NCBI GenBank assembly: GCA_041499185.1
Contig: JBGQJU010000012.1
Coordinates: 4,790 to 68,789, forward strand
Source of the DNA: Pyrinomonadaceae bacterium
GTDB lineage: Bacteria; Acidobacteriota; Blastocatellia; Pyrinomonadales; Pyrinomonadaceae
DNA length: 64,000 bases
Reading direction: 5' to 3'
The notes beneath the pieces were generated by a model. It was not told the origin of the DNA. It made no database searches and saw nothing but the letters and a program-made list of their open reading frames with translations. The stretch's first letter is position 1; every line of letters begins with the position of its first letter. Both the position numbers and the translations under genes were made by a program. Below are positions 47,297 to 56,231 of this stretch, one piece after another.

Positions 47297-48286
47297 TTAT
47301 GAGTTCTTTGCTTTAGCTATTTCGTCGAGCAAATTCCCCCACGCTTCCTCTTCTCGCGCGGGATCGAAGAGCCGAGCAAGTTTTCGGCAGCGCGTTATCA
47401 GATAGGCATAAAACGCGGCGTCCGTCTCAGCGCGCTTCAGGAGTCGGGCCAGACTGCGCGTGTCACCCACCGTGAAGTAGCCGGGATAATCTTCACGCAA
47501 GACGCCCTGGTTTCCCGGAATGCGCGAGGCAAGCACGGGCACCGAAGCGACCAGCGACTCTGACAGAACATTTGCGCCTCCCTCCATGCGTGACGACAAC
47601 ACGGTGAGTTGGCTGCGCGCAAGAATCCGGCGCACGCGCCAGCGCGGTTGCTCACCCAGCCACCGATAACGACGATTTCTCTTCGACTCAGCGCGCGCCC
47701 GACGGGCCATCGCTTTCGTCATTGCGCTGCCGATCTGGAGAATGCGAATCTGCGACGAACGCGGCAACAACCGGGCGGCCATCGCTGCGCGAAAAGGGTT
47801 CTTCACCGGTCGTAGATGCCCAATCACACAGACGTCAAAGCTTCGCCGGGACTCGCGCGCAAATGAGGGGCGCGCCCCTCGTCCGGTGCGAGGCCTCGAC
47901 TCGACCGACTGGTAGATAACAACTGTCTTCTCACGCAGGTCCGGCGCAAGCTCATCGAGTGCCTTAGGCTGTAGCACAACGATGCGGGTGGCCAGTTCAA
48001 GTGAAGCTCGGGCCGACGGGCTTGTACTGAGATCGCGGTATAGGTCCGTGCCCGTCAGCGCGACGATGATAGGTGATTCAGGATGCTGCTGGTGAAATCG
48101 CTTTACGGCGTCGTGACTCTTGCGAGCATGAAGAGCGATGAGCAAGTCATAACGTCCTCCGTCATATTCCTGCTTGACGCTGACGCGGTGGCCGAGGCTT
48201 TTCAGAATCCGCGCCCAGCGCACCGCCGTTACCCGGTTGCCGTAGCGAGATCGCGGAGGCGCGGGTGTGATGATTCCGATTCGCAT
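47297..48286 (-). CDS. senB: glycosyltransferase resembling the selenoneine selenosugar synthase SenB (TIGR04348-like)
   Basis: The N-terminus MRIGIITPAPPRSRYGNRVTAVRWARILKSLGH...DLLIALHARKS...IVALTGTDLY matches my recollection of the SenB family signature. It lies 18 bp downstream of an EgtB-like gene. Confidence 0.6.
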   Translation of the reverse strand: MRIGIITPAPPRSRYGNRVTAVRWARILKSLGHRVSVKQEYDGGRYDLLIALHARKSHDAVKRFHQQHPESPIIVALTGTDLYRDLSTSPSARASLELATRIVVLQPKALDELAPDLREKTVVIYQSVESRPRTGRGARPSFARESRRSFDVCVIGHLRPVKNPFRAAMAARLLPRSSQIRILQIGSAMTKAMARRARAESKRNRRYRWLGEQPRWRVRRILARSQLTVLSSRMEGGANVLSESLVASVPVLASRIPGNQGVLREDYPGYFTVGDTRSLARLLKRAETDAAFYAYLITRCRKLARLFDPAREEEAWGNLLDEIAKAKNS

Positions 48287-48304
48287 CAGGCTGTGGGAAC
48301 GAAA

Positions 48305-49690
48305 TTAATCAAGTTGAACTGCGCAGGTGCGAAAGCCGGCCCAAACGTCGCGGCGGTCGGGCGTGTAGAAGTTCCGATAATTATTGCGGATCAACCGCGA
48401 GCGCGTGACCCAGCAACCGCCGCGCAGCACTTTATGATCGCCGAACCACGGCTGCGAATACTCCTTGTACGGACCGACAGCAAAACCTGGATAAGGACCA
48501 AATGTTGTTGAAGTCCATTCCCAGACGTTGCCAATCATCTGCCGGCAACCGAATGCGCTGTCGCCCGCGGACAACGCATCAACCGGCAGACAGCCCCCCT
48601 CTTTTAATGCGCGCCAGTCGAGATTCGCGCGCTCCGGTGTTGGCGGTTCATCGCCCCAGGGATAACGACGTTTATGCGTGGTAATGCCTTGACCATCTGC
48701 GGCTGGTTCCGCGCTTGCGGCCAGTTCCCATTCGGCTTCGGTCGGCAAGCGGCGCTTGGCCCAGCGACAGTAAGCATCAGCTTCGTGCCAGTTAACATGA
48801 ATCACTGGTAGACGATCCTCCAGCGACACCCACTGATCGAAGTTGCGTCGCAACCAGCCGCCGCTTGCTTCGCGTTTCCAGTAGACGGGATGCTCGGCTC
48901 TCACACTTTCACGCCATTGCCAGCCTTCGTCGGTCCAGAGGTTGCGCTGCCGATAACCTCCAGCTTCGACGAAACTCAAGAATTCCTCATTCGTCACGGC
49001 AGTCTTTGAGATCGCGAAAGGCGCGACCTCGATTTCGTGCGCCCATTGTTCGTTGTCAAAGACGAAGCCTTCATCGCGCCCGCTTCCCAGCATGAACTTG
49101 CCACCTGGAATCTGCGTATCGCCTTCCGCGTCGCCTGAGCCATCAGCCTGCGACAAACAGGTGGCCTCTGCCTCACCACTCGATTGGATCGCAGACAGAG
49201 TAAATCGCGGTGGCGGATAGGCGAGCGTCTGCCGCGTGTAAGTGATTGCTTCGTCGTGCATCTGCTCGTGAAGCAAGACGAGCTGCAAAAAGTATGACTC
49301 GTCGTGCCCGGCGGCGGCGCGAAGTCGCCCACCTGAATGTTCGGTCTGTTCGATCACCCGGTCGAGCACGCGCCGCATGTAACCGAGAGTCTCTTCACGC
49401 GTCAACAGCAGCAGATCCCAGCGCGTATCGTGAGCCACGCGCGCGGAATCGTAGAGTGAGTCACCGTGCGCGAGAATCGGCGGCTGTCCGCCGAGATGAC
49501 GAAGCATCCAGAACTCCTGAAACCAAGCGAGGTGACCGATTTCCCAGCGCAGAGCGTTAACAATGCTGAGGCGTGGCCCCATCAATTGGTCATCTGTGAG
49601 ATCGGCGACTAGATCGAGCGTCCTTGCGCGGGTTTCGCGCAGCGCTGCAATCAGTTCCGCATTTGACGGTTTTCTCTGGGGTGCACTCAT
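48305..49690 (-). CDS. senA: EgtB-family sulfoxide/selenoxide synthase (DinB_2 + FGE-sulfatase domains), likely SenA
   Basis: N-terminal DinB-like LRWEIGHLAWFQEFW...HEQMHDE. C-terminal FGE domain RLPTEAEWE...GNVWEWT...VLRGG...RNNYRNF. Adjacent to the SenB-like glycosyltransferase. Confidence 0.65.
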   Translation of the reverse strand: MSAPQRKPSNAELIAALRETRARTLDLVADLTDDQLMGPRLSIVNALRWEIGHLAWFQEFWMLRHLGGQPPILAHGDSLYDSARVAHDTRWDLLLLTREETLGYMRRVLDRVIEQTEHSGGRLRAAAGHDESYFLQLVLLHEQMHDEAITYTRQTLAYPPPRFTLSAIQSSGEAEATCLSQADGSGDAEGDTQIPGGKFMLGSGRDEGFVFDNEQWAHEIEVAPFAISKTAVTNEEFLSFVEAGGYRQRNLWTDEGWQWRESVRAEHPVYWKREASGGWLRRNFDQWVSLEDRLPVIHVNWHEADAYCRWAKRRLPTEAEWELAASAEPAADGQGITTHKRRYPWGDEPPTPERANLDWRALKEGGCLPVDALSAGDSAFGCRQMIGNVWEWTSTTFGPYPGFAVGPYKEYSQPWFGDHKVLRGGCWVTRSRLIRNNYRNFYTPDRRDVWAGFRTCAVQLD

Positions 49691-55136: not shown

Positions 55137-55199
55137 TGCGTTCCTCCAGAATTGTTCACGAGGGAAGACCCGACAGAGCCGAGTTGAGCTCAGGCCGAT

Positions 55200-56231
55200 C
55201 TAACTTACAACCAGCGAGCGTTCTCCGCGCTCGATAACCCGGCCGATAACGGCCGCGCGAGGATAGTTTTCCCGCAGCCTCGCGAGCATGGCCTCCGCCC
55301 GATCCGCCGGTAGCGAAATGAGCAGGCCGCCGGCCGTTTGCGGATCATAAAGCAAGTGACGCAGCTCTTTACCAACACCGGCGGCTATCTCAATGTCGTC
55401 ACCGATGTATTCGCGATTGGTTTTATCACCGCTGGTCAGCAAACCTTGAGCTGCCAGCTCCAACGCGCCATCAATCAAGGGAACCTGGGCGGAGTCTATT
55501 TCGATTGTAACCTTACTCGCGCAGGCCACTTCCCAGGCATGGCCAAGCAGGGCAAAGCCGGTTACGTCGGTGGCGCCTTTGACGTTGAACTCGCGCATGG
55601 CCTCGGCGGCAAACTTACCAGGAGTCAACATAGTTAAGACTGAAGCGGCCGCGACCTTTTCACTGACCTTTGCGAACTTGATTCCGGTGGAGATCACCCC
55701 GGTGCCGATTGGTTTCGTTAGGATGATAACGTCCCCGACGCGCGCACCTGCATTCGTGGCCACCTTATTGGGATCGATCACGCCGGTAACGGAATAACCG
55801 AACATGATCTGCTGATTGTCCACGCTGTGGCCGCCAACTAGTGTGACGCCGTACTTGTTCAGCGTCTCGAGTCCGCCGCGCATGATCTCGCCCAGGATCG
55901 CGGGATCTACACCCGTCTTCGGAAAGCACGTGATAGCCATTGCCGTAATTGGCGTACCGGCCATCGCCCAAACGTCATTGATCGAGTTGAGCGCCGCGAT
56001 GCGTCCGTAATCGTACGGGTCATCGACGATGGGCGTGAAAAAATCGAGTGTTTGCACGATCGCGAGGTCGTCGCGCAAACGATACACTCCCGCATCGTCG
56101 GCCGTATCGAAGCCAACCAGGAGATTCTCGTCCTTGGGCTGTTGTGGTAGCCCGCTCAACACCTGAGCGAGTAAGCTCGGTGACAGCTTAGCCGCTCAAC
56201 CAGAGCACGAAACCATTTCGGTCAGACGCAT
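55200..56231 (-). CDS. selD: selenide, water dikinase SelD with in-frame UGA selenocysteine (codon at 56196-56198)
   Basis: My own translation upstream of the ORF-track start gives [44 protein letters not shown]... The U aligns with catalytic Cys17 and the K with Lys20 of E. coli SelD (GAGCGCK). The rest matches SelD ([30 protein letters not shown]). Confidence 0.85.
56164..56198 (-). promoter_or_regulatory. SECIS-like hairpin beginning at the UGA codon of selD
   Basis: On the minus strand, ugagcggcuaagcu-gucaccg-agcuuacucgcuca pairs 6 bp + G-U + one mismatch + 6 bp around a 7-nt loop. Confidence 0.6.

Follow-up and report, generated by a model that had tools for sequence, protein, structure and literature searches.

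What is the function of eight closely packed genes on the minus strand at positions 47297-56231 of a 64,000-nucleotide stretch from a Pyrinomonadaceae bacterium (assembly GCA_041499185.1, contig JBGQJU010000012.1), and on what does the flavoprotein disulfide reductase encoded by the fifth of these genes act? We refer to the whole stretch, at its full length, as the window. Our analysis suggests that the locus is a modular selenium-utilisation operon of a soil Blastocatellia (Acidobacteriota) bacterium, in which the reductase would serve as a partner of thio/seleno-histidine betaine chemistry; taken as a whole, we consider this explanation somewhat probable. The locus is a variant of the known sen cluster and is new in its arrangement. 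All coordinates given below are window positions unless a locus is named, and the labels L001-L137 refer to contigs or loci of relatives.

A preliminary description of the window had reported eight co-directional minus-strand genes separated by gaps from -23 to 111 bp. All eight open reading frames (ORFs) were recovered at the same positions and in the same direction, and the gap range agrees with the spacings that we re-derived from the coordinates. The 5' to 3' order is selD, binding protein, ATPase, fused permease, reductase, EgtB fragment, senA and senB, and the features of the cluster are as follows, with the evidence for each in brackets.

55200-56231, minus strand: selD, first gene of the operon, in the place of a senC (translation, TIGR00476)
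56152-56170, minus strand: hairpin resembling a selenocysteine insertion sequence (SECIS) (RNAalifold consensus, covariation)
54270-55136, minus strand: periplasmic substrate-binding protein of a putative selenium oxyanion ATP-binding cassette (ABC) importer (TIGR04553)
53434-54273, minus strand: PhnC-like ABC transporter ATPase (TIGR02315 just under its cut-off; Pfam ABC_tran)
51705-53495, minus strand: fused double permease with two PhnE-like halves (TIGR01097 and BPD_transp_1, both in two stretches)
50300-51691, minus strand: RclA-like class I flavoprotein disulfide reductase (Pfam and NCBIfam, structure match, orthologue contexts)
50016-50299, minus strand: 285-bp filler with no counterpart in relatives (blastn against L093)
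49703-50188, minus strand: type II egtB remnant, EgtB-derived at 49703-50015 only (partial match to the EgtB model)
48305-49690, minus strand: senA, predicted selenoneine (selenoxide) synthase (NF041186)
47297-48286, minus strand: senB, predicted selenosugar synthase (Se-glycosyltransferase) (TIGR04348)

The intergenic gap is 63 bp between selD and the binding-protein gene and -4 bp between the latter and the ATPase gene. For the ATPase and permease genes it amounts to -23, -62 or -173 bp, according to the start codon assumed for the permease, which gene callers place at 53495 or 53456 (calls in L087 and L089) and whose open frame extends to 53606. The permease and reductase genes are 13 bp apart when the reductase ATG at 51691, chosen by public gene callers, is used. 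Gaps of 111 bp, 12 bp and 18 bp then separate the reductase from the EgtB fragment, the fragment from senA, and senA from senB, respectively.

The reductase protein of the window is found, identical, in three public assemblies (GCA_041497235.1, GCA_041492935.1 and JGI 3300052991), all three of which carry the same eight genes. A metagenome scan queried with the binding protein yielded 80 loci, among which the order selD-transporter-reductase-egtB-senA-senB recurs in L093, L094 and L109 (the last of which begins within selD). The same order was seen in L105 and L107, with no senB match in the stretch examined, and in L120, up to the end of the contig after egtB. As this gene order is found on independent metagenome contigs, it reflects a conserved operon type rather than a chance juxtaposition.

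The identity of the last two genes places the cluster in selenoneine biosynthesis. The glycosyltransferase, described earlier as SenB-like, scores 396.6 bits against the selenosugar synthase model TIGR04348 (cut-off 300), covering profile positions 1-309 of 310, and its closest solved structures are those of Variovorax paradoxus SenB (8jjq and 8fbx). The senB product, which passes this curated model, is thus a predicted Se-glycosyltransferase, as had been proposed. The gene before it, previously called EgtB/SenA-like, can now be assigned more narrowly, since its product passes the selenoneine synthase model NF041186 (503.7 bits, cut-off 420) and fails the EgtB model (328.5 bits, cut-off 360). 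The top-scoring solved structure for this protein is OvsA, which raised the possibility of an OvsA identity. OvsA carries M401, Q430 and A431, where hercynine-using SenA enzymes carry Y, N and F/Y (PMC11030361). Upon alignment to OvsA, the window protein presents Y, N and F at these positions (...ykeYsq... and ...yrNFy...), which were read at the C-terminal positions of the 17-position composite motif xNEH--HRHxHYYN(F/Y)(F/Y)R. Its score is also better with the engineered OvsA-YNF variant (8ux5, 321 bits) than with the wild-type enzyme (8u41, 311 bits). The three residues rule out an OvsA identity and, together with the higher score on 8ux5, point to a hercynine-using SenA.

The first gene of the cluster begins with an ATG at 56231, preceded by the ribosome-binding site GGAGAA, and contains an in-frame TGA at codon 12 (56196-56198). 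Its product passes the selenide, water dikinase model TIGR00476 (360.8 bits, cut-off 125), and its N-terminal glycine-rich loop reads SCSG-U-AAK, with selenocysteine (Sec) at the catalytic Cys/Sec position. TGA is present at the same codon in 24 of the 24 SelD homologues collected, in the conserved context SC(S/A)G-U-AAKL. At 26-45 nt 3' of the UGA, a hairpin of eight pairs (CGCTCA-GGTGT-TGAGCG) was obtained with RNAalifold from 13 distinct sequences, and two of the pairs show compensatory changes (U-A to C-G and G-C to A-U). An Rfam scan of the whole window returned no match, so that no curated SECIS or riboswitch family was called, and a scan of the window for tRNA genes found none, hence no tRNA-Sec. 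SelD orthologues also adjoin selA (L137) or occur without sen genes, as in the selD-reductase-egtB arrangement on a 3-Mb contig (L005, L006). Given the conservation of the UGA and the occurrence of orthologues beside selA or without sen genes, we consider this protein to be the general Sec-type SelD of the class, in agreement with the earlier suggestion of a Sec-type housekeeping enzyme. The arrangement typical of senC, with selD overlapping or adjoining senB, is not found here, as six ORFs separate the two genes. The operon is tightly packed, and the UGA comes within the first codons of its first gene. As pure speculation, termination at this codon under selenium shortage could reduce downstream expression by polarity and so couple selenoneine synthesis to selenium supply.

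The 161-residue ORF at 49703-50188 had been described as a truncated EgtB-like gene. The truncation stands, and the ORF is now re-read as a decayed type II egtB that is intact in relatives. It scores 124.8 bits against the EgtB model TIGR03440 (cut-off 360), matches profile positions 329-413 only, and lacks the DinB_2 domain. Relatives carry two tandem EgtB-like genes, the first of which passes the EgtB model (466-468 bits, cut-off 360) and the second the SenA model. In L093 and L094, the same gene order includes an intact type II EgtB of 488 residues, and that of L093 best matches the type II structures 8qf6, 6qki and 6o6l; relatives with the intact gene have binding proteins 93-94% identical to that of the window (94% for L093). 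According to blastn, 285 bp of unrelated sequence in the window (50016-50299) replace ~1.49 kb of L093, comprising the reductase-egtB spacer and the 5' ~1.15 kb of egtB. The fragment ORF is therefore chimeric, with ~56 N-terminal residues from the filler and ~103 C-terminal residues from EgtB, the latter 90-92% identical to the C-terminus of the intact EgtB in L093 and L001. Other lineages without egtB carry no such remnant. Comparison with the relatives marks the ORF as a decayed type II egtB, lost recently through a 1.5-kb deletion with replacement. As close relatives hold an intact type II egtB in the place of the remnant, the same comparison indicates that the ancestral operon encoded both a sulfur enzyme (EgtB) and a selenium enzyme (SenA), of which the sulfur one was lost in the window lineage. 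The pairing of egtB with senA in tandem, reduced in this lineage to senA only, illustrates how bacteria of the soil either use the sulfur and the selenium form of an antioxidant side by side or settle for one of them.

We had also considered the fragment as a conserved short gene and rejected this, since the sole matches in L099, L100 and L108 lie within senA, and L093, L094, L105, L107, L109 and L120 carry a full egtB. The filler contributes the initial ~56 codons of the chimeric ORF; its translated peptide has no Pfam match, and it may be what is left of a small gene that was once inserted here.

The reductase contains Pyr_redox_2 and Pyr_redox_dim domains and is a class I pyridine-nucleotide disulfide oxidoreductase, with a redox-active CINYGC motif and HPTLAE near the C-terminus, where no Cys pair is present. 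Its closest structure, over the full length, is Escherichia coli RclA (6kgy, 357 bits). The protein nonetheless fails the RclA model NF040477 (449.7 bits, cut-off 740), as do five orthologues from other phyla (416-431 bits). It also fails NF004992 (PRK06370.1-4 FAD-containing oxidoreductase; 548 bits, cut-off 629, orthologues 530-566 bits) and the MerA model TIGR02053 (374.8 bits, cut-off 454.45, with the window protein and its orthologues spanning 345-375 bits). By these scores, the RclA-like clade is covered by no curated family. The label 'mercuric reductase', under which relatives appear at NCBI, is unsupported, given the absence of a C-terminal Cys pair and the scores below the MerA cut-off.

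To what chemistry this reductase belongs was approached through its genomic neighbourhoods, considering one genome per species and 80 orthologues of 62-75% identity. These came from Acidobacteriota, Chloroflexota, Actinomycetota, Planctomycetota, Calditrichota, Burkholderiales and others. The genes selD, senA and senB adjoin the reductase in Blastocatellia only, and the transporter adjoins it in none of the 80. When the neighbouring ORFs were clustered, the conserved neighbour seen most often was EgtB, in 13 of 75 loci; a DUF4126 membrane protein (11) and EgtD (7) came next. Among the 44 loci with at least 6 kb of sequence on both sides, an EgtB-like gene was found in 8 and EgtD in 7; by our own estimate of chance, a single-copy gene would lie within 20 kb of a random point of a ~5-Mb genome in ~0.2 loci.

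Profile and structure-sequence searches placed these neighbours in three lineages outside Blastocatellia. In Calditrichia the order is reductase-EgtB(type II)-EgtD, in Tepidisphaeraceae it is EgtB-EgtD-SnoaL-reductase with gaps of 16-22 bp, and in Acidobacteriaceae EgtB(type IV-like)-EgtD lies ~4-6 kb upstream of the reductase on the same strand. No selenium gene lies within 10 kb of the reductase at these egtB/egtD loci. In Blastocatellia, every locus with enough downstream sequence shows the reductase followed by egtB or senA on the same strand. The reductase is present without the transporter in L001, L003, L005, L009 and L010, and without selD in L099 and L100; some relatives carry selD-reductase-egtB-senA-senB clusters that lack the transporter.

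As the reductase joins three types of sulfoxide/selenoxide synthase in four lineages, it appears to be tied to their product and not to one enzyme lineage. It tracks the synthases in four lineages and selD in one, and the most economical explanation is thus that its substrate is ergothioneine or selenoneine in an oxidised sulfur or selenium form. In line with this, its closest characterised relatives, RclA and the Har/MerA enzymes, act on hypothiocyanous acid (HOSCN), itself an electrophile of sulfenyl type. Judged by gene neighbourhoods, a role as redox partner in ergothioneine/selenoneine chemistry is the most likely one for the reductase, ahead of a selenite-reducing front end.

Two side observations concern the spacing around these genes. 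A small insert is sometimes found between the reductase and egtB or senA, and the reductase-egtB spacer looks like an insertion hot spot: L003/L004 hold a DUF2281 and PIN toxin-antitoxin pair there (11529-12226), and L099/L100 hold a YceI-like gene between the reductase and senA (14889-15440). In the Acidobacteriaceae loci L064, L074 and L084 (~6300-9500), the interval from egtB(IV-like)-egtD to the reductase holds two regulatory genes. The first encodes a 556-residue thioredoxin-reductase-like protein with an N-terminus resembling a response-regulator receiver domain, and the second looks by its sequence like a sensor histidine kinase; the pair could form a redox-sensing unit.

The pathways of ergothioneine and selenoneine both arrive at a sulfenic or selenenic acid whose final reduction takes two electrons. 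We tentatively suggest, while leaning towards doubt on this specific point, that the RclA-like clade, found beside these synthases in four lineages, is the missing dedicated NAD(P)H-dependent reductase of thio/seleno-histidine betaines. If true, the clade would have one of two tasks: completion of biosynthesis, with the sulfenic acid of ergothioneine or the selenenic acid of selenoneine as the intermediate that is reduced, or regeneration of the antioxidant from its oxidised disulfide or diselenide. This would make it a counterpart of the glutathione, mycothione and bacillithiol disulfide reductases. In vitro, the last-step reduction was supplied by dithiothreitol (Kayrouz et al. 2022, 10.1101/2022.04.13.486033). 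Our full-text literature searches returned no paper on an ergothioneine or selenoneine reductase, nothing relevant linking RclA-like enzymes to ergothioneine or selenoneine, and nothing relevant on disulfide reductases among selD-linked genes. The link is the one lead that is apparently undescribed, and it offers a concrete candidate for the last reduction that can be tested in vitro.

Several points weigh against this explanation and should be considered when referring to it. At 36 of the 44 well-flanked reductase loci, no egt or sen gene lies within 10 kb. Within Blastocatellia the reductase is always near selD or the transporter, so that this lineage alone cannot separate a role in betaine chemistry from one in selenite reduction, and the reduction of selenite or selenotrisulfides is a general capability of class I disulfide reductases. 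In 11 loci of several phyla (L021, L027, L051, L058, L064, L068, L071, L079, L082, L084 and L085), the gene immediately upstream of the reductase encodes a DUF4126 membrane protein of ~160 residues, in agreement with a general stress function. Among the 20 ORFs scanned outside the cluster (the ten longest in 1-21.6 kb and the ten longest in 22-41 kb plus 62-64 kb), there was no egtD, nor selA, selB or other selenium genes, and hercynine supply is therefore assumed from an EgtD encoded outside the window. Finally, it is the spacing of the eight genes that suggests their co-transcription; a consensus promoter and terminator scan of 46400-57400 gave counts at or below the shuffled expectation and is uninformative on transcription units.

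The preliminary description had paired the reductase with the transporter as a front end that would reduce imported selenite or selenotrisulfide to selenide for SelD. The reductase gene does directly follow the transporter in 11 of the 31 evaluable loci, and it directly follows selD, with gaps of 4-193 bp, in the transporter-less clusters. In addition, the chemistry of a CxxxxC dithiol with flavin adenine dinucleotide suits selenotrisulfide reduction, as in glutathione reductase and thioredoxin reductase. However, the two halves of such a front end are readily found apart. The reductase is present in selD-reductase-egtB-senA-senB clusters that have no transporter, while the transporter is present without the reductase in transporter-senA-senB clusters (L090, L101, L102 and L104) and in loci that combine selD with the transporter (L117-L119 and L137). 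Moreover, the clade extends widely through phyla in which its surroundings hold no selenium gene, and the orthologues of Calditrichia, Tepidisphaeraceae and Acidobacteriaceae stand with egtB/egtD in such surroundings. The front-end proposal is therefore unsupported as it was worded, and we consider it unlikely that selenide supply is the task of this enzyme.

It was also considered that the reductase is a general RclA-like defence against reactive electrophiles, such as HOSCN, chlorine species and Cu(II), which would share a stress regulon and a genomic location with antioxidant genes and have no betaine or selenium substrate. The full-length RclA match of 357 bits, together with the fact that most orthologues have no egt or sen neighbour, fits such a role. 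The frequent pairing with DUF4126 (11 loci) recalls rclA with its membrane partners in rclABC. Yet the protein lies far below the RclA equivalog cut-off (450 against 740 bits), and operon-like packing with egtB-egtD arose independently, with differing gene orders and gaps of 16-160 bp. HOSCN is, furthermore, an oxidant of animal hosts and, in our view, improbable in soil. General defence, as the sole role of the reductase, thus seems doubtful to us, and a part in ergothioneine/selenoneine chemistry remains the reading that we prefer.

For the transporter, the earlier expectation of a link to selenium was borne out. The binding protein (Pfam Phosphonate-bd) passes TIGR04553, the 'putative selenate ABC transporter' model (261.2 bits, cut-off 250), and fails the PhnD equivalog TIGR03431 (196.5 bits, cut-off 261.1). 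The ATPase narrowly fails the PhnC model TIGR02315 (253.1 bits, cut-off 266.1), while the permease passes the PhnE model TIGR01097 (441.8 bits in two stretches, cut-off 216.7). The closest solved structures of the binding protein include the phosphite-binding PtxB, and the arsenate-binding ArrX and arsenite-binding AioX belong to the same fold family; by this analogy, a small oxyanion is a plausible ligand. The relatives of the binding protein are named 'putative selenate ABC transporter substrate-binding protein' by NCBI.

The neighbourhoods of these relatives point in the same direction. Besides the transporter-senA-senB clusters mentioned above, we found selA-LysR-transporter...selB in L092, transporter-selD-selA in L137, selD-transporter in L118 (and likewise in L117, with selD ~5 kb upstream), and the transporter-reductase-senAB arrangement. 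At least one selenium gene (selD, selA/selB or senAB) is carried by 13 of the 18 long-flank loci, and selD lies directly upstream of the transporter in 12 of the 46 evaluable loci. Import of phosphite, phosphonate or another non-selenium oxyanion, with an incidental position in the operon, would agree with the PhnE and near-PhnC scores, with PtxB among the closest solved binding proteins and with the 5 of 18 long loci that have no selenium gene, but is very improbable given the result with TIGR04553 and PhnD, the independent juxtapositions with selD, selA/selB and senAB, and the absence of any C-P lyase, phosphonatase or ptxD match among the 20 window ORFs scanned or the neighbours called around the cluster.

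The link between this transporter and selenium is supported by our data, although it is not new, since it is already contained in TIGR04553 and in the 2022 selenoneine preprint, where a putative selenate transporter near many sen clusters was reported (Kayrouz et al. 2022, 10.1101/2022.04.13.486033). A review of the same year states that no high-affinity selenium transport system had been identified (PMC9312934), and the locus makes a compact test bed for an uncharacterised selenium importer.

Taken together, family memberships suggest the following route. The TIGR04553-type ABC importer would take up a selenium oxyanion, which the cell would reduce to selenide, a step to which we assign no enzyme. 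The Sec-containing SelD would then make selenophosphate, the general SelD of the class standing in for a dedicated SenC, and SenB would convert this to a selenosugar. SenA would couple hercynine to the selenosugar; once the sugar is lost and two electrons have been added, selenoneine would result. The reductase may contribute an NAD(P)H-driven reduction of the oxidised sulfur or selenium product or of the last intermediate (a sulfenic or selenenic acid, or a disulfide or diselenide), and, with less likelihood, of selenite for SelD. As neither selA nor selB is among the scanned ORFs and no tRNA-Sec is present in the window, the Sec machinery would be encoded outside of it.

Some further observations relate to the surroundings of the cluster. 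Divergent to selD, on the plus strand, lie a gene for a 328-residue alpha/beta-hydrolase-like protein (56339-57325) and one for a DUF72 protein (57339-58250). The hydrolase is syntenic upstream of selD in L001, L005, L093 and L094, and DUF72 accompanies it in L001, L093 and L094, its place in L005 being taken by a TrxR-like flavoprotein. On the other side, at 41043-45833 (minus strand), an Lhr-type helicase is encoded, and the close relative L001 has this gene in synteny downstream of senB. In relatives, mobile-element genes (TraG/TrwB-like, Replic_Relax, relaxase and integrase) flank the cluster (L003/L004 17919-19926; L005/L006 1-2313), and L010 carries inserts, namely a PQQ/BamB-like beta-propeller between selD and the reductase (8556-9935) and an ADOP duplicated permease after senB (15103-17721).

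Farther away in the window, on the plus strand, large DNA-repair helicase genes form an AddB/AddA-like pair (7501-16839). A class V aminotransferase, kynureninase- or cysteine-desulfurase-like and of the fold class of the EgtE C-S lyase, is encoded at 20449-21603, 26 kb from the cluster. The gene at 22029-24659 joins a ClpB-like AAA+ N-terminal region to an S8 subtilisin-like peptidase, with a weak match to the anti-phage peptidase IteS, and the next gene (24672-25661) encodes a 329-residue protein without an NCBIfam family match.

One of the closest known systems is senABC of Variovorax paradoxus (Kayrouz et al. 2022, 10.1101/2022.04.13.486033), with which the window shares SenA and SenB orthologues and a SelD that would supply selenophosphate. 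In the window, however, selD is of the general Sec type and lies six ORFs from senB instead of overlapping it, and the operon embeds an RclA-like reductase and, ancestrally, a type II egtB. At the protein level, V. paradoxus SenA lacks a segment of ~55 residues that is present in the window SenA. The ovs (ovoselenol) cluster, with OvsA, OvsM and SenB/SenC homologues (PMC11030361), resembles the window in that OvsA is the top solved structure for its SenA, but differs in the M/Q/A residues that stand in place of Y/N/F, and no methyltransferase gene was called in or beside the window cluster.

The type II EgtB of Chloracidobacterium thermophilum (6o6l, 6qki) is a best match of the relatives' intact egtB. 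The window remnant keeps the type II ...YRNFF... C-terminus (motif list in PMC11030361), although only the last ~103 residues are retained, fused to unrelated sequence. With regard to TIGR04553, a hypothetical equivalog, the window binding protein lies above the cut-off and the genomic link to selenium is reproduced, while the window transporter differs by its place inside an operon, between selD and the reductase; its selenate ligand is putative. Lastly, the reductase shares with RclA (6kgy) and the HOSCN reductases Har/MerA (8ajj, 8ajk) the class I flavoprotein disulfide reductase fold and the GGTCINxGCxPTK active site in a full-length alignment. It is distinguished from RclA by a 17-residue insertion near residue 62, and its clade by neighbours that are egtB/egtD, senAB, selD or DUF4126, rather than rclBC.

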